Source: a virus
Length of the DNA stretch: 40,595 bases
IMG/VR virus record: IMGVR_UViG_3300031162_000774
Location: 1-40,595 of that record
Direction: 5' to 3' (one strand)
Under the pieces are notes generated by a model, which made no database searches, was not told the origin of the DNA, and saw only the letters and a list, made by a program, of their open reading frames with translations. Within the stretch, counting starts at the first letter, position 1. Each line of letters begins with the position of its first letter. Both the position numbers and the translations under genes were made by a program. Of this stretch, positions 1-40,595 are shown in pieces.

Positions 1-87
1 AAAGCTTCCACCTGTTGCAGTAGGTAATTTACATTCAGTATCGGTAGTACCACGAACAACAGCAAGACCGAAGTCAATTGCAGAAGC
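1..87. repeat. Terminal direct repeat: bases 1-87 are identical to 40509-40595 (circular-assembly overlap or short terminal redundancy)
   Basis: Read directly. Both copies spell aaagcttccacctgttgcag...gtcaattgcagaagc with no mismatch. The repeat lies inside a coding region that is intact only when the ends are joined. Confidence 0.95.
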
Positions 88-8410: not shown

Positions 8411-8527
8411 ACTATCTGAATTTTTACTTTGTTTATGGACTGTAACATAAAACCAATATCCTTGCAAAATGAAATTACCAACAGATGCAATAGCGCCTAT
8501 TACTAAAATAGAATAAACTACTGTCAT
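8411..8527 (-). CDS. Micro-ORF, 38 aa, single TM segment
   Basis: My own translation: MTVVYSILVIGAIASVGNFILQGYWFYVTVHKQSKNSDS. Its ATG overlaps the TGA of the upstream 56-aa ORF (ATGA). Confidence 0.35.
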
Positions 8528-8694
8528 ATCTCAATTTCCGCTTTACCATTTTTACCCAAATCATGAGCATCTTTAGCAAGTAGCTTTAATATTCTCTTCC
8601 ATTTAGGCTTTTGTTTCTCTGGCATTTTACGCTCATCGACTATTTTATCTAATACCAGATAAAGATCTGTTAAACTTGTAACTTCGATTTTCAT
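8524..8694 (-). CDS. Small hypothetical protein, 56 aa
   Basis: My own translation: MKIEVTSLTDLYLVLDKIVDERKMPEKQKPKWKRILKLLAKDAHDLGKNGKAEIEI. It has ATGA overlaps with both neighbours, which suggests translational coupling. Confidence 0.45.
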   Translation of the reverse strand: MKIEVTSLTDLYLVLDKIVDERKMPEKQKPKWKRILKLLAKDAHDLGKNGKAEIEI

Positions 8695-9200
8695 GATTTA
8701 ATTTGTCCTACTGCATCATATGCTAATAAAAACATATCTCCATTTGTATCGTCAGATACACCAACTTTCATAAGCAATTCAACATCATCAAAGTATAATG
8801 AAGGATCCTCAAATTTCTTATAGACTTCCATCAATACCTTACGATTTTCAAAATTAGCAAATAAGACCCATAGAGCTAACATCTCTAATTGAACTTCTTT
8901 ATGAGATAGTTTCTCAATAACCTTTTTAACTTTAGAAGCTAATTGTTTATTAATCCATATGGACAACGTTCTCATAAGAGGTATAGGAATTTCTTTAACA
9001 GTTTCTTCTATAGTATCTAGAAGACGTTCTAATCGTCTGTCAATACGTTTATTCTCTTTGAAGTTTTTATTGTCTCTGTCACGAGCTATAGTACCTTCTT
9101 CATCTTCTTTTCTCATATCCAAAGCAATATGAATTAATGATTGAGCAAAGAATATAACTAGAAGATCTTTTTTAGCACCTGAGCTGAAGTTATGCTTCAT
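8691..9200 (-). CDS. Hypothetical helical protein (169 aa from the ATG at 9200)
   Basis: The ORF-track entry is 8691-9236. The internal start MKHNFSS at 9200 lies 1 nt after the upstream gene's stop, so I prefer it. No motif recognised. Confidence 0.5.
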   Translation of the reverse strand: MKHNFSSGAKKDLLVIFFAQSLIHIALDMRKEDEEGTIARDRDNKNFKENKRIDRRLERLLDTIEETVKEIPIPLMRTLSIWINKQLASKVKKVIEKLSHKEVQLEMLALWVLFANFENRKVLMEVYKKFEDPSLYFDDVELLMKVGVSDDTNGDMFLLAYDAVGQIKS

Positions 9201-9201
9201 C

Positions 9202-9381
9202 TTAAAGCCAATTCTTAAAGGTTGTAAAACTGTCATATGTTAACCAAAAGCCAAATAACATAAATAAAAATAATATTATTCTAGCTCCCCAACTATGTTG
9301 ATATGGTAAATCAGTGGCAGTTGTAAATGTTATTATTAAACCTATAAAAAATACAATAATAATTCCAATTAATTCATACAT
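9202..9381 (-). CDS. Small membrane protein, two TM segments (59 aa from the ATG at 9381)
   Basis: MYELIGIIIVFFIGLIITF...ARIILFLFMLFGFWLTY. An AAGGA SD lies upstream. This start avoids overlap with the HTH gene that ends at 9383. Confidence 0.5.
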   Translation of the reverse strand: MYELIGIIIVFFIGLIITFTTATDLPYQHSWGARIILFLFMLFGFWLTYDSFTTFKNWL

Positions 9382-9382
9382 T

Positions 9383-9571
9383 TTAAATTTCCTTTTTTGT
9401 CCAATTCGGACCATCGTATCCGAGTTTAACAAGTGTAGTTGTCATTGTATTACGTGCACAACCATACTTTTCTACAAGTCTAGTAATAGTCATACCCTTA
9501 TCGTACAGTTCTTTTATCTCATCTCCATGATCTATTACAAGATCAGCAGATGTTATATGCTTTTTAGCCAT
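9383..9571 (-). CDS. Small helix-turn-helix DNA-binding protein
   Basis: 62 aa. GMTITRLVEKYGCARNTMTTTLVKLG is a classic HTH. It is the first gene after promoter-motif copy 1. Confidence 0.55.
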   Translation of the reverse strand: MAKKHITSADLVIDHGDEIKELYDKGMTITRLVEKYGCARNTMTTTLVKLGYDGPNWTKKEI

Positions 9572-14188: not shown

Positions 14189-14665
14189 TTATCCTTTTGC
14201 AACATTTTCTAACTTAGATATTAATTCATTTTTCCATTCCCATGTACTAAATTGAGGTAAATCTATATCACCTGTAGTTTTAACACCATTACGCTCAAAT
14301 CCCAATCTACCTTTCATAAATACAATCTTACCTTTACAAGCAAAATCATGGAACCATTGTGTATCTGTTCTAGATGGTATTAAACAAACACCAATTTTAT
14401 TATGCTTTTTTGATTGATTATAAGCATATTCCAACCATTCAGGTATTGATCTACCATATGGAGGGTTCATCCAAAAATTCTTATCCCATTCTTGAATAAG
14501 GGCGTTATCTTCTTCAGTAAAATACTTTTTACATTTAGATGTTTCTGGATAACAACATACGTCTAATTTTAATTTAGTGTTAAATTTCTTTTTTACTAAA
14601 TCTACAAACCATTGAGGTGTCGCCCAATCTTGATGAATTGAACTCATTACGTTTTTAACGTCCAT
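14189..14665 (-). CDS. Phage Dam-family DNA N6-adenine methyltransferase
   Basis: 158 aa. DWATPQWF ... FWMNPPYGRSIPEWL ... CLIPSRTDTQWF is the signature of the small phage N6-adenine MTase family (NPPY catalytic motif). Confidence 0.8.
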   Translation of the reverse strand: MDVKNVMSSIHQDWATPQWFVDLVKKKFNTKLKLDVCCYPETSKCKKYFTEEDNALIQEWDKNFWMNPPYGRSIPEWLEYAYNQSKKHNKIGVCLIPSRTDTQWFHDFACKGKIVFMKGRLGFERNGVKTTGDIDLPQFSTWEWKNELISKLENVAKG

Positions 14666-17246: not shown

Positions 17247-17861
17247 ATGTCTGAAGGTATTCATATTAAAAAGAACGACTATGTTACAAGCCCTAAAGGT
17301 TCATTATTATATGTAAACATTACTGGTCAAGGTAAAGAAAACTATGATGGCGACGGTTATGATTATGTTGCAACTGTTGATGTTCCTAAAAAAGAAGCTA
17401 AACAGTTTATGAAAGAGATTGATGCATTCTTAGAAGATAATCAACCTTCTAAATCTCATAAATTGCGTTCACTTCCTTATCGTACACATAAAGATAGTGA
17501 GAAAATTCCTGAAGATATGGTTCGCTTTAACTTCAAAACTCAGACAACTTTTGAGTCAGGTGATACCCGTAAGATTAATTTGTTCAATCACAAAAATGAA
17601 CGTGTTTCACTTCCTGATGGTACAAAAATTGGTAACGGTTCTGTTGGTCTTATCTCTGGTAAGATTACAATCTATACTGGTAAAAAAGATTATGGTGTTA
17701 CGTTATGGTTAAATGGTATTCAGATCCTTAAGTTTGAAGAGTATATTGAAGACTCAGGTTTTGAAGAACAAGATGAAGGTGACTTTGAAAACTTCGATAC
17801 TAATCTTGAACCAGGTGTTGAAGAAAAAAAAGAGAAGAAAAAAAAGAAGAAGAAAAAATAA
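17247..17861 (+). CDS. ssDNA-binding protein, T7 gp2.5-like
   Basis: 204 aa. Colinear pattern matches to T7 gp2.5 as I recall it (TSPKGSLLYVNI.., FNFKTQTTF..., KIGNGSVGLISGKITIY, acidic DEGDFENFD near the C-terminus). Sits upstream of the DNA polymerase. Confidence 0.65.
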   Translation: MSEGIHIKKNDYVTSPKGSLLYVNITGQGKENYDGDGYDYVATVDVPKKEAKQFMKEIDAFLEDNQPSKSHKLRSLPYRTHKDSEKIPEDMVRFNFKTQTTFESGDTRKINLFNHKNERVSLPDGTKIGNGSVGLISGKITIYTGKKDYGVTLWLNGIQILKFEEYIEDSGFEEQDEGDFENFDTNLEPGVEEKKEKKKKKKKK

Positions 17862-17939: not shown

Positions 17940-18260
17940 ATGAAAAAAATTATACTTTCTATTTTAATGATTGTTGGCTTAACAAGCTCATTATTTGCTA
18001 TAAACCCAATCGGTTGCGATATGCTTAAAGTTTCACAAACTGTTAATTCAATTCAAGGTGCTGATAGTAAATCTACTGTTCCTTCTGATGTTGCATTTGT
18101 GAAAGCTACACAGACTGCTCCTGCTTCCATACTGTATAGCAAGGGATCCTCTAATGGATTAAGTAAGAAAATTGTTATTTGTAAAAATATTGCAGCTGCT
18201 TCTGAATTACCAGGTATCTCAGGAGGATATATAGCCACTATGGGAGAAGGTGGGGTTTAA
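17940..18260 (+). CDS. Small secreted protein, function unknown
   Basis: 106 aa. Signal peptide MKKIILSILMIVGLTSSLFA-IN and a strong SD (AAAGGAGAAAAGTATG). Flanked by hairpins. Confidence 0.55.
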   Translation: MKKIILSILMIVGLTSSLFAINPIGCDMLKVSQTVNSIQGADSKSTVPSDVAFVKATQTAPASILYSKGSSNGLSKKIVICKNIAAASELPGISGGYIATMGEGGV

Positions 18261-18305: not shown

Positions 18306-18595
18306 TCACGGTGATGACGATTAGCAATGAGCCAAGAATGGAACTCATGTCAGCCTTTTTAGATCATACTATTAAGATTATAAGGACGGACGTTATGAAA
18401 TATAAAAGAATAACAGTAACTACTGCACTTAGTGGTGGTTTTAAACCAGAACAATGCATGGAAATTGAAGTTATAATAGAAGATAATATATATAAAGTTA
18501 GTGAAAGAAAAGGTAAACTTCATATTAGAGTTGATGGAGCTATTAATATTACTCCAATAGCAAATAATTGTATATCAATTAATGAAAGTAAATAA
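18296..18595 (+). CDS. Hypothetical protein (start uncertain)
   Basis: The ORF-track entry starts at a GTG inside the hairpin. Alternative ATGs exist at 18314 and 18393; the latter has an AAGGA SD 8 nt upstream. Confidence 0.4.
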   Translation: MRLITVMTISNEPRMELMSAFLDHTIKIIRTDVMKYKRITVTTALSGGFKPEQCMEIEVIIEDNIYKVSERKGKLHIRVDGAINITPIANNCISINESK

Positions 18596-20501
18596 AATGA
18601 ATATCTTTGATATAGAAATCTTTCCAAATTATGCTCTTTTTGCATTTATGAATGAGAAAGGTAAAGTTAAAACATTTGAAACGTTTGATAAATTTAAACC
18701 TAAGCAAATTCAGAAAATAAGAAAAATATTGACTAAATTAGTTGTTGGTTTTAACTCTATCAATTACGATATGCCAATTGTTGAATATGCTTTATCTGGT
18801 GCTAATGTAGAAAATATGTACAAAGCATCTCAAGCTATAATCAAAGATGGCGTTAAACCATATATGCTTTATCGTATGATGAAGATTAAACGTAACTGGG
18901 ATTATGATCATATTGATCTATCAGAACAAGCTCCAGGTGTTCGTGTTGGTCTTAAATTATATGGAACAAGACTTGGATCTGAAAAGTTATGGGAATATGA
19001 ACTTGATTTTGATAAACCCATTAAAAAGAAAGAAGTTGAAAATCTTAAACGTTACTGTATAAATGACCTTATGGTTACTAAAGATTTATATGATGCTACT
19101 AAAGATCGTATTGAACTACGCGAGAAGATGACCAAACAATATGGTCTTGATCTTAGATCTAAATCAGATGCACAAATTGCTGAAGCTGTAATTGTTTCAG
19201 AGTTAGGTGGTAAAGTAGATAATGCACCATCTCAGAAACCATTCAAATATGATGTTCCTAAATATATTAAATTTGAAACTAAGCAGCTTAAAGATCTATT
19301 GAAAATGATCAAGAAGACAACATTTGTACTTGATGGTAAAGGATCTCCTCAAAAACCTGAGACATTTAAACCATTAACAATAGGTAATACTACTTATGAA
19401 ATTGGTATTGGTGGTTTACATTCTCAAGAGAAAAACTTAACTGTTGAAGCTGATGATGAATATGTTGTACGTAACGCGGATTATGCTTCTTATTATCCAT
19501 ATATTATTTTAAATAACAAATTATATCCTAAGCATCTTGGTAAAAAGTTCTTAAAGATCTATAGAAACATTGTTGAAACTCGTATTGCTGCAAAGAAAAG
19601 TGGTGATAAACTTACAGCGGACTCTTTAAAGATTACTATTAATGGTAGCTTCGGTAAATATGGATCTAAATATTCTAAACTATATTCACCTAAGCTGCTA
19701 CTACAAACAACGATTACAGGTCAGCTTACACTTCTTATGCTTATTGAAAAATTTGAGTCTGTGGGTATCTCTGTTGTTTCTGCTAATACAGATGGAATTG
19801 AATATTTATGTCGTAGAAAAGATGTAGATTTAGCTGAAGAAATTATTGCAGAACTTGATGTTGCAACAGGTTATACAATGGAACATGGTGAATATCAAGG
19901 CTTATATGCAAGAGATGTTTCTAATTATATTGCTAAATATGATGGTTATGTAAAATCAAAAGGTGTATTCGGAGAACCAACTTTAGAAAAGAATACACAA
20001 ACACCTATATGTTTTGAAGCTGTTCGTGAGTTTATTAACAAAGGCACACCTTTAGAAAAAACTATTAAGAAGTGTAAAGACATTAAACAATTCTTATCTG
20101 CTAGAAAAGTAACAGGCGGAGCCAAATGGAAAGGTGAGTATCTAGGTAAAGTTGTTCGTTGGTATTATTCAACTGAGGGTGAGAATATATTTTATATTAA
20201 ACCTAACAAAACTGGTACTCATAATAAAGTTCCATTAACTGGTACAGCTAAACCAATGATGGACCTTAGTAAGAAGATACCTAAAGATCTAGATTATAAC
20301 TGGTACATTCAATATGCTAAACGTATGCTTGGAGATTGTAATAACAACTATGCTCTATCTGATCAAGAAATATTTGATGAAGCTGTAGAAATGGCTGGAT
20401 CAATAGAAGATCTTTATATTAAAGAATTAGGATATAAGAAAGTTATGCCTAAACTTAGTGTAGCTTCTATAAACAAAATGAAAAAGTATTTATATGGCTA
20501 G
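18582..20501 (+). CDS. Family B DNA polymerase with N-terminal 3'-5' exonuclease
   Basis: 639 aa. ExoI FDIE at the N-terminus, motif A-like NADYASYYPYIIL, motif B-like KITINGSFGKYG and motif C-like VSANTDGIEY. An alternative start lies at 18597. Confidence 0.85.
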   Translation: MKVNKMNIFDIEIFPNYALFAFMNEKGKVKTFETFDKFKPKQIQKIRKILTKLVVGFNSINYDMPIVEYALSGANVENMYKASQAIIKDGVKPYMLYRMMKIKRNWDYDHIDLSEQAPGVRVGLKLYGTRLGSEKLWEYELDFDKPIKKKEVENLKRYCINDLMVTKDLYDATKDRIELREKMTKQYGLDLRSKSDAQIAEAVIVSELGGKVDNAPSQKPFKYDVPKYIKFETKQLKDLLKMIKKTTFVLDGKGSPQKPETFKPLTIGNTTYEIGIGGLHSQEKNLTVEADDEYVVRNADYASYYPYIILNNKLYPKHLGKKFLKIYRNIVETRIAAKKSGDKLTADSLKITINGSFGKYGSKYSKLYSPKLLLQTTITGQLTLLMLIEKFESVGISVVSANTDGIEYLCRRKDVDLAEEIIAELDVATGYTMEHGEYQGLYARDVSNYIAKYDGYVKSKGVFGEPTLEKNTQTPICFEAVREFINKGTPLEKTIKKCKDIKQFLSARKVTGGAKWKGEYLGKVVRWYYSTEGENIFYIKPNKTGTHNKVPLTGTAKPMMDLSKKIPKDLDYNWYIQYAKRMLGDCNNNYALSDQEIFDEAVEMAGSIEDLYIKELGYKKVMPKLSVASINKMKKYLYG

Positions 20502-23955: not shown

Positions 23956-24441
23956 ATGGAAGTTAAAGATATATTAGAACAAAGGCAAGAAACGCATGGT
24001 GATTTTGGACAAGGTGCAAAATTTACACAAGAATATAAAAGAGAGATGAGAAGTATTTCTACTTACTGTCAATTAACTTATTCTCAAAAAGAAGCAGCAG
24101 ATATGATTATTCATAAACTTGCTAGAGTTATGGTCGGTGATTTTAAATGGTTAGATAGCTGGTATGATATTATTGGATATTCTCAATTAGTTGTTAATAT
24201 AATGAAAGAAGATATATTACCTGAACCTTTCTTTGCTTTAAATCCTGCTATTATTTATGAAACTATTAATGGTGTATTAATTGAACGTTATCAATTAGCT
24301 ATATCTACACAGATTGTTTCAATGGTATCAATAGCAATTGCTAATCCAGCATCAGTTAAACCATGGAAAGATATTATTAAACTTGCTCAATATATTATTG
24401 ATGATCTTGAAAGTAAAGGAGAAAAGCGTGTACAACGTTAG
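23956..24441 (+). CDS. All-alpha NTP pyrophosphohydrolase-like protein (MazG/MazZ N-terminal-domain-like)
   Basis: 161 aa. RQETHGDFGQGAKF...AADMIIHKLARVMVGD resembles the R...(Y/H)G(D)....K..R pattern of the phage dNTP diphosphohydrolase N-terminal domain (DUF6378-like), from memory only. Confidence 0.4.
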   Translation: MEVKDILEQRQETHGDFGQGAKFTQEYKREMRSISTYCQLTYSQKEAADMIIHKLARVMVGDFKWLDSWYDIIGYSQLVVNIMKEDILPEPFFALNPAIIYETINGVLIERYQLAISTQIVSMVSIAIANPASVKPWKDIIKLAQYIIDDLESKGEKRVQR

Positions 24442-25078
24442 TGATATTCGCCACCTCCTTGGTGGAAAATTATTCGATGAAGAATTTGTTGAAGATAAAT
24501 CAGGTGTTAAACTTATAGAAATTATAGGTGAGTCTTTTATTTGTGATGAACCTACTATATTTGGTACAAGAAATGAAGAATATATTGCTAAAGAAATTAA
24601 GTGGTATGAGTCTCAATCATTAAATATTTATGATATGAAATGTCCTCCTAAAATTTGGTGTGATATTGCTGACAGTAATGGTTATATAAATTCAAACTAT
24701 GGTTGGATGATATTCTCAACTACTAATGGTAATCAATATAATCGTGTTCTAAATGAACTTCGTGAAAATCCAACATCAAGACGTGCTGAAATGATCTATA
24801 CAAGACCATCTATGCATACAGATTATCGTTTAGATGGTATGAGTGACTTCTGCTGCACATTAGGAGTTGATTATTTTATACGTAAAAATAAACTTCATGC
24901 AATTGTAAAGATGAGATCTAATGATGCTATTTTTGGTTTTAAAAATGATTATGCTTGGCAAAGACATATATTGTTACGTTTAGCAAATGAGCTAATGGTC
25001 GCATGTGGTGATATTATTTGGCAAGCTTCTAGCTTACATGTATATGAAAGACATTTTCATTTGGTTAAAGGAGAATAA
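24428..25078 (+). CDS. Deoxycytidylate (dCMP) 5-hydroxymethylase, T4 gp42-like
   Basis: Blocks VKLIEIIGESF, INSNYGW, NPTSRRAEMIYTRPSM, DGMSDFCCT, KMRSNDAIFGFKNDYAWQ and SSLHVYERHF are colinear with T4 gp42 as I recall it. Residues at the positions of Cys148 and Asp179 appear conserved. GTG start at 24428 with AAGGAG 6 nt upstream; the ORF-track ATG at 24338 would overlap the upstream gene by 104 nt. Confidence 0.85.
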   Translation: MYNVSDIRHLLGGKLFDEEFVEDKSGVKLIEIIGESFICDEPTIFGTRNEEYIAKEIKWYESQSLNIYDMKCPPKIWCDIADSNGYINSNYGWMIFSTTNGNQYNRVLNELRENPTSRRAEMIYTRPSMHTDYRLDGMSDFCCTLGVDYFIRKNKLHAIVKMRSNDAIFGFKNDYAWQRHILLRLANELMVACGDIIWQASSLHVYERHFHLVKGE

Positions 25079-25079
25079 A

Positions 25080-25550
25080 ATGAGTAAACAATTAAAATTT
25101 GATGCCGCTATGATGATCACTGCAGCTGCATTTGGTAAATTAAGTCACGCTAAGCGTGGCAAAGTTGGATGTGTCATAGCTAAGGATAACAGAATTATAG
25201 CTAATGGCTACAATGGAACATTACCTGGATTATCTAATGAATGTGAAGAAGAATGCCCAGATTGTCACGGTTTGGGTCTTGGCTGTAACACTTGTCAGAA
25301 TAAAGGTTATGTAACTTCTGAATTCGTTTTACATGCTGAACAAAATGCAATCTCTTATTGTGCAAGAAATGGAATACCTCTTGAAGGTACTACGTTATAT
25401 TTAACATTAAGTCCTTGTAAGACATGTGCAAAACTTATTGCTTCATGTGGTATTGAAAGAGTTGTATATGAAGATATATATCGTGACGACGGTGGTATTG
25501 AATACCTAGAAAAATGTAAAATTAAAGTGGAGAAACATAATGAAAAATAA
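25080..25550 (+). CDS. dCMP deaminase (CMP/dCMP-type zinc deaminase)
   Basis: HAEQNAI and SPCKTCAKLI catalytic zinc motifs plus GYNGTLPG. A Cys-rich insert CEEECPDCHGLGLGCNTCQNKG lies at the position of the structural second zinc site. The ATG at 25080 lies 1 nt after the upstream stop. Confidence 0.88.
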   Translation: MSKQLKFDAAMMITAAAFGKLSHAKRGKVGCVIAKDNRIIANGYNGTLPGLSNECEEECPDCHGLGLGCNTCQNKGYVTSEFVLHAEQNAISYCARNGIPLEGTTLYLTLSPCKTCAKLIASCGIERVVYEDIYRDDGGIEYLEKCKIKVEKHNEK

Positions 25551-26433
25551 AGATACAGTTTACGTGCTAAATAAAAAGCAACAACAAAAGAAAACTAAGG
25601 TTACAAAGATAGACGGTGATCAAGTATGGGTTAAATGTTCTGATAAACCATATCCAATGTCTGAAGTTATGACTGAGAAAAAAGTTGATCTAAAAGCTAA
25701 ACCTTATAACAATACTCAGTTAGATCCTGATAAAGCATTTGAACGTCATATCTTTCATCGCGATCAATTCGCTCATTACTTCAGATGGACACATGTTCTT
25801 AAGTTAGCTAAAATCGGTGGTAAAGTTTTAGACTTTGGTTCAGGTAGTGGTAATCTTGTTGAGGTCTTATATCGCAACCAGTTCAAACAATCACAATATC
25901 TAGGTCTTGAATACAAGCAAGGTACTGTTGATAAAGCAAATGAAAAATACGCTAAAGTTCCTTGGATTGATTTTAAACAAGCTGATCTTGTTAATGATGT
26001 AGATCATGGAAATGACTGGGATATTATCTGTAGTTTTGAAGTAATTGAACATGTAGGTGTTGACAATGGTAAAAAGTATCTTAAAAATCTTAGAGCTCAT
26101 TGTAACGATAATACAACGGTTCTTATATCAACTCCTGTTTATGATCATAATACTGCTGCAGCTGGTAACCATGTTGTTGACGGTGAAGTAAATGAGTATA
26201 CGTATGAAGAGATGGAGAAACTTATTACCAAATCAGGTTTTGAAATTGAACAAACTTATGGTACTTTTGCTTCAATGAAAGATTATAAATCTGAAATGAA
26301 TGAACATCAGAAGTATGTATTTGATGAGTTAAATAAATACTATGATAGTAATGTTACATCAATCTTGATGGCACCAATGTTTCCTAAGCAGTCACGTAAT
26401 GTCATTTGGAAATTAAAAAAGGCAGGTAAATAA
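25540..26433 (+). CDS. Class I SAM-dependent methyltransferase (small-molecule/UbiG-like type, not a recognisable DNA MTase), substrate unknown
   Basis: 297 aa. Motif I VLDFGSGSGNL, post-I YLGLE and IICSFEVIEHV typical of Methyltransf_11/23-like enzymes. No (D/N)PPY or PCQ DNA-MTase motif. An N-terminal extension of ~90 residues is present. Confidence 0.7.
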   Translation: MKNKDTVYVLNKKQQQKKTKVTKIDGDQVWVKCSDKPYPMSEVMTEKKVDLKAKPYNNTQLDPDKAFERHIFHRDQFAHYFRWTHVLKLAKIGGKVLDFGSGSGNLVEVLYRNQFKQSQYLGLEYKQGTVDKANEKYAKVPWIDFKQADLVNDVDHGNDWDIICSFEVIEHVGVDNGKKYLKNLRAHCNDNTTVLISTPVYDHNTAAAGNHVVDGEVNEYTYEEMEKLITKSGFEIEQTYGTFASMKDYKSEMNEHQKYVFDELNKYYDSNVTSILMAPMFPKQSRNVIWKLKKAGK

Positions 26434-26435
26434 AG

Positions 26436-26609
26436 ATGTCAAGCACAGTTACAATAACTACAAAAGATAATGATACTAAACTTGAGAATGTAAAATTCTA
26501 TGCATTTGAAAGAAACTTTGTTAATGTCGTTTTAGAAAATGGTAATAAATCATATTTTAAAACATCTACGATATTAAAATTGGAAGAGGTTAAAGATGAA
26601 AAAAACTAA
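26436..26609 (+). CDS. Small hypothetical protein, 57 aa; not in the ORF track
   Basis: My own translation: MSSTVTITTKDNDTKLENVKFYAFERNFVNVVLENGNKSYFKTSTILKLEEVKDEKN. Starts 2 nt after the MTase stop and overlaps the next gene by 14 nt. Confidence 0.4.
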   Translation: MSSTVTITTKDNDTKLENVKFYAFERNFVNVVLENGNKSYFKTSTILKLEEVKDEKN

Positions 26610-27069
26610 CAAACCAGAAAACCAATGTGCACATTTAGAAGTACCTGAAGAGAATTTCTCTTTTCAGGATATGCTAGATCTTCAACACAATTTACAAATA
26701 GACTTGGCTCAGAGATTACCTCTAAGCAATATTGATCCAACTATGATAGAAACCAAAGGAGAGTTAAAAGAATGGTTTAGAGATAACAGAGATGCTATTT
26801 CTGATGAGTTTACAGAACTTATTGAAGCTATTGGTGGTAATGACTCAGCTATTTGGAAAAAGTGGAAAGCAAATCATGCTGCTTTAGGTCAAGAAAAATG
26901 GCAAGATCTATCTGAAGATGAGATGCTTGAACTTAAATATGAAGCAATCGATATTATGCACTTTATCAATAATATTTTTATTGCTCTTAGAATGGATGCT
27001 GCTGAAATTGGTAGAATGTATGCTGCAAAGAATGCAGAAAATTTACGTAGATATAAAACACAGTATTAG
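26596..27069 (+). CDS. Dimeric dUTPase / MazG-like all-alpha dNTP pyrophosphatase (candidate dCTPase/dUTPase)
   Basis: 157 aa. SDEFTELIEAIGG...WKKWK...ELKYEAIDIMHFINNIF matches the E..E...(W)K.W...E..D..HF pattern of dimeric dUTPase / dCTP pyrophosphatase families. Confidence 0.6.
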   Translation: MKKTNKPENQCAHLEVPEENFSFQDMLDLQHNLQIDLAQRLPLSNIDPTMIETKGELKEWFRDNRDAISDEFTELIEAIGGNDSAIWKKWKANHAALGQEKWQDLSEDEMLELKYEAIDIMHFINNIFIALRMDAAEIGRMYAAKNAENLRRYKTQY

Positions 27070-40223: not shown

Positions 40224-40595
40224 TTATTTGAATTTAACTCTACCGATTTCACCGGCAGCAGTAGTTGTATCCCAAACAGCGTTTGCGATTACATCAGTTT
40301 CTGAAGCAACAGGAGTAGTAACAAGACCACCAAGTTGGCCAGTTCCAGCAACATAACGAAATGATACAGGATCACCTTGTGTACAACCATCTTCACAAAT
40401 AGCGTAAATTACACCTTCATCAAGAATATTTGCAGACTCATCGATCTGATATTTACGATCACCAGCTGTATCAGCAGTTCCAGCGATTGTACGAACAGTA
40501 AGACCTACAAAGCTTCCACCTGTTGCAGTAGGTAATTTACATTCAGTATCGGTAGTACCACGAACAACAGCAAGACCGAAGTCAATTGCAGAAGC
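40224..40595 (-). CDS. C-terminal part of the 156-aa head decoration/cement-like protein (continuation of 1-186; the last 87 nt duplicate 1-87)
   Basis: Open frame with stop TAA at 40224-40226. The translation ends ...VWDTTTAAGEIGRVKFK. The frame matches the ATG at 186 once the 87-bp overlap is collapsed. Confidence 0.6.
   Translation of the reverse strand, partial: ASAIDFGLAVVRGTTDTECKLPTATGGSFVGLTVRTIAGTADTAGDRKYQIDESANILDEGVIYAICEDGCTQGDPVSFRYVAGTGQLGGLVTTPVASETDVIANAVWDTTTAAGEIGRVKFK
40509..40595. repeat. Second copy of the 87-bp terminal direct repeat
   Basis: Identical to 1-87 by direct reading. Confidence 0.95.

Follow-up and report, generated by a model that had tools for sequence, protein, structure and literature searches.

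The window analyzed here comprises the 40,595 nucleotides of IMG/VR virus record IMGVR_UViG_3300031162_000774 and encodes, at positions 24428..25078 (+), a 216-residue protein that is very probably a deoxycytidine monophosphate (dCMP) hydroxymethylase of the T4 gp42 type (deoxycytidylate 5-hydroxymethyltransferase). The gene belongs to a compact cassette (23956-27069) that also codes for a T4 gp56-type pyrophosphatase, a dCMP deaminase, and an S-adenosylmethionine (SAM)-dependent methyltransferase (MTase). A functional gp42-type hydroxymethylase operating within a T4-like, pre-replicative cytosine-replacement pathway is the probable explanation of this locus, as judged from sequence comparisons, and the virion DNA likely carries 5-hydroxymethylcytosine (hmC) or a derivative of it. 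The enzyme adds a further member to a known family, and metavirome work has already revealed gp42-signature enzymes in small uncultured phages. Of most interest at this locus is the conserved MTase, which was overlooked in an original prediction made from the letters of the sequence without database searches.

A phmmer search against all PDB sequences returned T4 dCMP hydroxymethylase (1b49) as the top match (E = 2.1e-73), at a level that chance cannot account for, with residues 3-213 of the 216 aligned to T4 residues 7-225 and an identity of ~55% over the full length. Thymidylate synthases (TS) came next in the ranking, at only ~1e-11. The original prediction had recognized the enzyme from six peptide blocks compared with T4 strings; all six blocks are present in the translation of the + strand open reading frame (ORF) ending at 25078, and the quoted T4 strings agree with the T4 gp42 sequence of 1b49 as aligned. 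Its coordinates, 24428-25078, run from a GTG start codon to the end of the stop codon. This GTG has an AAGGAG Shine-Dalgarno sequence 7 nt before it, and the same start was picked on an identical Logan contig by an independent gene caller. Translation could alternatively begin at the in-frame ATG at 24401, which would add nine residues.

Catalytic columns in the alignment were set by the T4 mutant PDB entries 6a9a (C148S/D179N) and 6l18 (D179N). Cys143 and Asp174 of the window protein sit in the columns marked by these entries, in line with the conservation of Cys148 and Asp179 that had been claimed earlier. In T4, a study of ternary complexes assigned cofactor activation to Glu60, the nucleophile to Cys148, phosphate binding to Arg123/Arg124, cytosine recognition and N3 protonation to Asp179, and the positioning and activation of the water that leads to a hydroxymethyl rather than a methyl product to Ser94, Tyr96, and Asp145; several folate contacts are also named in its active-site list (PMC6400193). 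Twenty of the 22 T4 residues named there are identical in the window protein (including Glu60, Ser94, Tyr96, Arg123/124, Asp145, Cys148, Asp171, Asp179, Tyr218, and Arg220), and the other two are Arg to Lys replacements. The water-positioning set is complete, as Asp140, Ser89, and Tyr91 (T4 Asp145, Ser94, and Tyr96). Window residues Asp140, Cys143, Asp166, and Asp174 correspond to ThyA L143, C146, D169, and N177, and the resulting 143/146/169/177 signature, D-C-D-D, is that of T4 gp42, as compared to L-C-D-N in E. coli ThyA and E-C-N-D in an RB69 gp48-type homolog; it sets hydroxymethylases apart from thymidylate synthase, dCMP methylases, and 5-hydroxy-dCMP synthases. This signature, together with the 20 shared active-site residues, led us to file the protein as a gp42-type dCMP hydroxymethylase. 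The alignment against T4 gp42 and ThyA that the original prediction had proposed as a check yields a full-length gp42 match with corresponding Cys and Asp positions, and the enzyme assignment stands on the combination of full-length homology, active-site identity, and the D-C-D-D signature.

Pfam and PHROGs label the window protein only as 'thymidylate synthase' (Pfam Thymidylat_synt, E = 1.7e-17), and the Joint Genome Institute (JGI) gives its homologs the same name. Taken at face value, these labels would favor an ordinary thymidylate synthase or an RB69 gp48-type 5-hydroxy-dCMP synthase, which is flavin-dependent. ThyA membership was rejected, since the protein scores 30-50 bits with the NCBIfam ThyA equivalogs against cutoffs of 108-405 (best model, 49.9 bits against a cutoff of 327) and has Asp at both the Asn177 and the Leu143 position. 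The flavin-dependent 5-hydroxy-dCMP synthases of RB69 and DLP3 can be told by an Asn at the position of ThyA Asp169 (PMC13326640). The window protein has Asp166 where the RB69 gp48-type homolog of phage phiR1-RT has Asn, and these two proteins are only ~25% identical, which also led us to reject membership in the RB69 gp48/DLP3 gp80 type. We regard both assignments as extremely improbable.

A dCMP 5-methyltransferase of the XP12 type, which would make 5-methyl-dCMP and thereby place 5-methylcytosine in DNA, is another candidate, since Asp at ThyA N177 cannot by itself separate a 5-methylcytosine from an hmC product. Some Asp177 enzymes make 5-methyl-dCMP, and several metavirome N177D enzymes encoded beside deaminases made 5-methyldeoxycytidine (10.1101/2024.12.05.627091). 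Leu at ThyA 143 goes together with methyl products, and Asp or Glu there with hydroxymethyl products (Lee et al. 2026, PMC13326640). By this correlative rule the XP12 type was rejected, because the window protein has Asp140, as T4 has D145, in place of the hydrophobic Leu143. Ser89 and Tyr91 are likewise conserved, T4 mutants D145N, S94A, and Y96F are deficient (PMC6400193; PMC13326640), and the 55% full-length identity to T4 gp42 also argues against a methyl-forming enzyme, which we consider very improbable here.

Neighboring genes between 23956 and 27069 share 11-14 nt or leave gaps of 1-2 nt, and thus form one operon. The cassette is kept in four other ~40-kb myovirus metagenomic contigs, the hydroxymethylases of which are 67-83% identical to that of the window. 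Directly downstream of the hydroxymethylase gene, the dCMP deaminase gene (25080..25550, +) encodes 156 residues with a Cys-rich insertion and intact HAE and PCxxC zinc motifs (Pfam dCMP_cyt_deam_1, 8.7e-22; PHROG 174, 1.9e-51; in the PDB, cyanophage S-TIM5 4p9c, 2.4e-25, and T4 cd 1vq2, 2.3e-19). The gene at 26596..27069 (+) codes for a 157-residue pyrophosphatase of the T4 gp56 type for deoxycytidine and deoxyuridine triphosphate (dCTP and dUTP), an all-alpha nucleoside triphosphate (NTP) pyrophosphohydrolase (PHROG 173, 1.2e-17; Pfam dUTPase_2, weak). In tblastn searches, 1423 phage records matched it, almost all of them from T4-like phages, with identities of 36-48% across 86-100% of the protein, and the matches are annotated as gp56 dCTPase or dCTP pyrophosphatase. 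The presence of a gp56-type dCTPase and a dCMP deaminase in the same operon, context that the original prediction did not use, strengthens the case for hmC in the DNA. In metaviromes, a deaminase was found within 3 kb of the TS homolog in 70% of cytosine-modified contigs versus 6% of unmodified contigs (10.1101/2024.12.05.627091). A deaminase was present in 70 of the 84 loci that we fetched via close gp42 relatives.

Collectively, these genes point to a pathway of five steps. The gp56-like pyrophosphatase (26596-27069) would hydrolyze dCTP, and probably dUTP, to the monophosphate, which would starve the polymerase of dCTP and feed dCMP to the hydroxymethylase. Cys143 would then attack C6 of dCMP while Asp174 reads and protonates the cytosine ring; a methylene group from 5,10-methylenetetrahydrofolate would be transferred, and water activated by Asp140/Ser89 would add to the exocyclic methylene to give 5-hydroxymethyl-dCMP (hm-dCMP). 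The deaminase would divert part of the dCMP to deoxyuridine monophosphate (dUMP), from which host ThyA could supply thymidine triphosphate (dTTP) for a genome that is 69% A+T. In a fourth step, hm-dCMP would be phosphorylated by a host kinase or by an unrecognized phage kinase and incorporated by the phage polymerase. Lastly, the linked MTase probably acts on the hydroxymethylated product, either nucleotide or DNA, as a tailoring enzyme. Homology to characterized enzymes suggests the first three steps; the fourth and fifth we infer.

The MTase gene (25540..26433, +) encodes a class I SAM-dependent, UbiG/Hen1-like enzyme of 297 residues (Pfam Methyltransf_23/12/25/11) with an extra N-terminal beta domain of ~55 residues. 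H73, R74, D75, H79, R82, E167, E170, H171, N210, and H211 are among its invariant residues. Its nearest sequence families are O-methyltransferases (NCBIfam UbiG, 2.9e-11; Hen1 MTase domain, 6.9e-7), with scores far below cutoffs. A search of the PDB with Foldseek, using an AlphaFold2 model with a predicted local distance difference test (pLDDT) score of 91.6, gave template modeling (TM) scores of ~0.5 and no match more specific than class I methyltransferases of small molecules or caps; the fold matches included RebM, MitM, the StiD O-methyltransferase, and phosphoethanolamine N-methyltransferase. The viral structure library BFVD held one specific match, from an uncultured phage. A CmoA-like identity was not supported by NCBIfam, and an E-x-x-E-H motif common to the MTase, Hen1, and UbiG was discarded as a mark of identity because it is too frequent to be diagnostic.

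We identified 713 metagenomic relatives of the MTase and, among cultured phages, five weak matches only. On three unrelated contigs (one of 19 kb that has an ERF recombinase, one of 172 kb that has PolA, and a marine one that has an integrase), the MTase adjoins a TS homolog and a dUTPase-like protein, in many cases together with a kinase and a deaminase. Among 80 IMG/VR loci fetched via the MTase alone (L016-L095), a TS homolog lies on the same strand within ~3 kb of the MTase in 79, and all 79 read D-C-D-D. In the single exception, the contig ends ~400 bp past the MTase. Clustered at 60% identity, the linked TS homologs form at least 15 groups, and they range from <30% to 83% identical to the window enzyme.

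Approximately 50 of the MTase loci (L041-L095; IMG/VR sample 3300045988 and others) are from ~50-kb contigs of one sample series. Their gene order is SNF2 helicase, MTase, two unknown genes, a trimeric dUTPase/DCD-like gene, an N4 gp49-like gene, one unknown gene, and the TS homolog. This phage group is abundant and probably carries the same modification.

Several observations weigh against the pathway proposed above. A deoxynucleoside monophosphate (dNMP) kinase was not found in the window with jackhmmer searches based on T4 gp1 and four Tmk-like kinases of related modules; the Walker-A proteins in the window are helicases and a primase only, and family scans of the unassigned ORFs gave no kinase. 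T4 requires gp1 for the phosphorylation of hm-dCMP, and it is a homolog of gp1 that these searches failed to detect. Many other MTase-TS modules carry a kinase, and the window clade is without one; a P-loop thymidylate-kinase-like gene is located between or beside the MTase and TS genes in loci L010 (6989-7489), L011 (6765-7304), L015 (6494-7057), and L014 (6358-7341). Nor was a glycosyltransferase family found among the ORFs scanned with Pfam and PHROGs, a set that held nearly every ORF >200 residues, not all short ORFs, and left out one ORF >200 residues, a tail-block gene whose positional counterpart in relatives matches PF18352. Some TS-adjacent deaminases prefer 5-substituted dCTP (10.1101/2024.12.05.627091), and the role assumed for the deaminase may thus be wrong. 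No close relative of the MTase has been characterized and its structural matches are unspecific, and linked genes need not act in one pathway. Finally, the MTase is present in only three of the 84 loci fetched via close gp42 relatives, all three from the window clade.

The last of these observations indicates that the MTase is not needed for hydroxymethylase function. Considered with the TS homologs found at 79 of 80 MTase loci, it further suggests that the MTase behaves like an optional tailoring enzyme restricted to carriers of dCMP hydroxymethylases. The glucosyl-, arabinosyl-, and carbamoyl-transferases of other phages show the same optional-tailoring behavior. As a tentative proposal, the MTase may be a dedicated hmC-tailoring enzyme, most simply one that methylates the oxygen of the 5-CH2OH group to yield 5-methoxymethylcytosine. 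That the derivative in the DNA is methylated hmC made by the linked MTase is likewise possible, though doubtful. In the literature searched, we found no report of methoxymethylcytosine as a natural DNA base.

The kinase result bears on a scenario in which hm-dCMP is made and the DNA is not globally substituted. Poor phosphorylation without a dNMP kinase would leave the DNA canonical or partly modified, and the module may then serve mainly to manipulate nucleotide pools through dCTP depletion and dTTP supply. Consistent with this scenario, neither a gp1-like nor a Tmk-like kinase was found in the window while other modules encode one, and TS homologs expressed without their kinase gave only trace amounts of modified base in DNA (PMC13326640). 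However, a phage would have little use for a gp56-type dCTPase if dCTP were not to be excluded, and the whole clade retains the cassette with its genes tightly coupled. On balance, this scenario appears unlikely.

Cultured Stenotrophomonas phage AXL3 encodes an analogous module, consisting of an MTase (gp31), an NTP pyrophosphohydrolase (gp30), a thymidylate-kinase-like protein (gp29), a TS homolog with the D-C-D-D signature (gp28), and a dCMP deaminase (gp27), and it also has a separate ThyX. The same module is present in a Manatee Spring podovirus, where it is followed by the DNA polymerase of that phage. Only two of 37 restriction enzymes cut AXL3 DNA, both at sites composed solely of A and T, and sites containing G/C were resistant (PMC7504290). 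A paper giving the chemical identity of the AXL3 modification was not found in the literature searched.

The restriction pattern of AXL3 is informative for a route through uracil, in which the deaminase would convert hm-dCMP or hm-dCTP to hydroxymethyl-deoxyuridine nucleotides so that 5-hydroxymethyluracil (hmU), or a methylated derivative, replaces some of the thymine. In AXL3, with its analogous module, cleavage at A/T-only sites and blockage at all G/C-containing sites (PMC7504290) argue against this route, as does the gp56-type dCTPase, which indicates the exclusion of C and not of T. Moreover, known hmU phages use a dUMP-specific (Asn177) enzyme. The route does gain from the translational coupling of the deaminase to the hydroxymethylase, and phage deaminases beside N177D TS homologs deaminate 5-methyl- and 5-hydroxymethyl-dCTP, with 5-hydroxymethyldeoxyuridine produced in vivo (10.1101/2024.12.05.627091). 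Host thymidylate kinase might also use 5-substituted dUMP as a substrate, in which case the lack of a phage kinase would be accounted for. Replacement of thymine nevertheless seems quite improbable to us, and cytosine replacement by the gp42-type pathway remains the preferred reading of the locus.

The phage that carries this cassette is a small myovirus. An exact terminal direct repeat of 87 bp (window 1-87 = 40509-40595) indicates that the assembly is circular or terminally redundant and that the genome is complete at ~40,508 bp; its G+C content is ~31%. PHROG scans identified head and packaging genes (large and small terminase, portal, head-morphogenesis protein, protease/scaffold, and major capsid protein), tail genes (sheath, tube-like protein, tail chaperone, tape measure, and baseplate hub and wedge), and replication genes (DNA polymerase, primase, Dda-like helicase, 5'-3' exonuclease, and SNF2-like helicase). 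A near-identical cultured phage was not found, as megablast of the 8 kb around the hydroxymethylase gene against 50,697 phage records gave no match, and no transfer RNA genes were found in the window, hence no clue to the host. In tblastn searches of the same records, all cultured gp42 homologs with >50% identity were in T4-like phages. The top tblastn match, Acinetobacter phage AB1I1P (11.4 kb), was rejected as a non-T4 carrier because it is a fragment of a 168-kb T4-like phage with a beta-glucosyltransferase. Together with the sheath, tape measure, baseplate, capsid, portal, and terminase genes and the empty megablast result, this distribution bears out the description of the phage as a ~40-kb non-T4 myovirus. 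The further claim that such an enzyme is unusual for a small phage holds among cultured phages and fails in metaviromes, where gp42-signature enzymes are common in phages of 28-55 kb.

Two smaller ORFs complete the cassette interval. The first gene (23956..24441, +) encodes a 161-residue, all-helical protein with a weak N-terminal DUF6378 match (Pfam, E = 3e-4, below the curated cutoff). It overlaps the hydroxymethylase gene by 14 nt, is conserved at the same position in L002, L003, and L005, and has only eight homologs, all within the phage clade of the window. We considered and rejected this protein as a second pyrophosphatase or the missing kinase, given an empty PDB sequence search and the sub-threshold DUF6378 match; its AlphaFold2 model (pLDDT 75.8, helical) found no Foldseek match. 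In the relative L004 (10001-10945; P0008), the hydroxymethylase is fused to an N-terminal PF18909 domain (dGTP_diPhyd_N, 'dATP/dGTP diphosphohydrolase'; E = 1.4e-26), and the fusion takes the slot of the separate upstream gene of 156-161 residues. No homology between the 161-residue protein and the PF18909 domain of P0008 was detected by hhalign (probability 0.5%). The domain content of the fusion suggests a physical coupling of nucleotide hydrolysis and hydroxymethylation. In another relative, L002, a gene for the small subunit of ribonucleotide reductase (8464-9486) lies directly 5' of the cassette; it is absent from the window. The second ORF (26436..26609, +; 57 residues) has no Pfam or PHROG match, is present in L001, and is absent at this position in L002, L004, and L005. 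It is probably not a core part of the cassette.

Incorporation of the modified nucleotide, a role that we infer, would require the phage DNA polymerase (18582..20501, +; 639 residues; PHROG 1252, E = 2.7e-177) to accept modified dCTP. This polymerase belongs to a divergent family, with no Pfam family on record for the window protein or its relatives. Just 5' of it, a 204-residue protein (17247-17861, +) without a family match has an acidic aromatic C-terminal segment followed by ten lysines and looks like a single-stranded DNA-binding protein. Also within the replication block, a 106-residue ORF (17940-18260, +) has a hydrophobic, signal-like N-terminal segment (MKKIILSILMIVGLTSSLFA...) and may encode a secreted or membrane protein. 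Elsewhere in the window, a Dam-family N6-adenine DNA methyltransferase gene (14189-14665, -; Pfam PF05869, E = 4e-27) suggests that the DNA may bear another modification, independent of the one discussed above. GATC sites are not depleted in the genome (observed/expected, 1.17), and statistics on four-base palindromes, a proxy for restriction pressure, gave no sign of strong avoidance.

If the DNA is modified as proposed, T4-style cytosine replacement would not be limited to large Straboviridae, and a 40-kb myovirus could carry it in a compact operon of ~3 kb. If the reading of the MTase is also true, a two-gene core would be the mark of this modification in no fewer than 15 divergent lineages of phages sampled from gut, sea, and soil, the cultured phages AXL3 and PW916 (a Pseudoxanthomonas phage) among them. 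The near-obligate pairing of the MTase with gp42-signature hydroxymethylases points to a possible new cytosine derivative. Such DNA modifications decide whether phages escape restriction, clustered regularly interspaced short palindromic repeat (CRISPR) systems, and modification-dependent nucleases, and the enzymes behind them have repeatedly been turned into epigenetic sequencing tools.

The window system has several known counterparts. The window hydroxymethylase shares with T4 gp42 (EC 2.1.2.8; PDB 1b49, 1b5e, and 6a9b) the catalytic Cys, the cytosine-selecting Asp, the water-activating Asp/Ser/Tyr set, the phosphate-binding Arg pair, and the folate-contacting residues. It is shorter, at 216 residues versus 246 in T4, lacking a 7-residue insertion (~196-202) and ~20 C-terminal residues of the T4 protein, and, unlike T4 gp42, it comes from a 40.5-kb myovirus that has no relation to the Straboviridae. 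The T4 hmC pathway comprises gp56, gp42, gp1, cd, and alpha- and beta-glucosyltransferases. Homologs of gp56, gp42, and cd are all encoded in the window, where they form one operon, whereas their genes are dispersed in T4; a gp1 kinase and a glucosyltransferase were not found in the window, and a SAM methyltransferase is present instead.

Modules of the AXL3 type (AXL3, MW202510, and L016-L095) resemble the window in combining an MTase of the same family (26-63% identity), a D-C-D-D TS homolog, an NTP pyrophosphatase, and in many cases a deaminase, with all of these genes on the same strand and only a few kb apart. The window differs from these modules in that its TS homolog belongs to the T4 gp42 clade, its pyrophosphatase is of the gp56 type and not MazG/PRA-PH or a trimeric dUTPase, its gene order is different, it is without a kinase, and its MTase has the extra N-terminal domain. 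The 5hmC carbamoyltransferase systems discovered in metavirome screens (eLife 2021, PMC8670742) likewise combine a TS-homolog hydroxymethylase, a pyrophosphohydrolase, and a deaminase with a group-transfer enzyme that co-occurs specifically with the hydroxymethylase and is a carbamoyltransferase in those systems and a SAM methyltransferase in the window. Collectively, these comparisons identify the window system as a variant of the T4 pathway, one that is compact, in which neither a kinase nor a glycosyltransferase was found, and that carries an MTase family without a known product.

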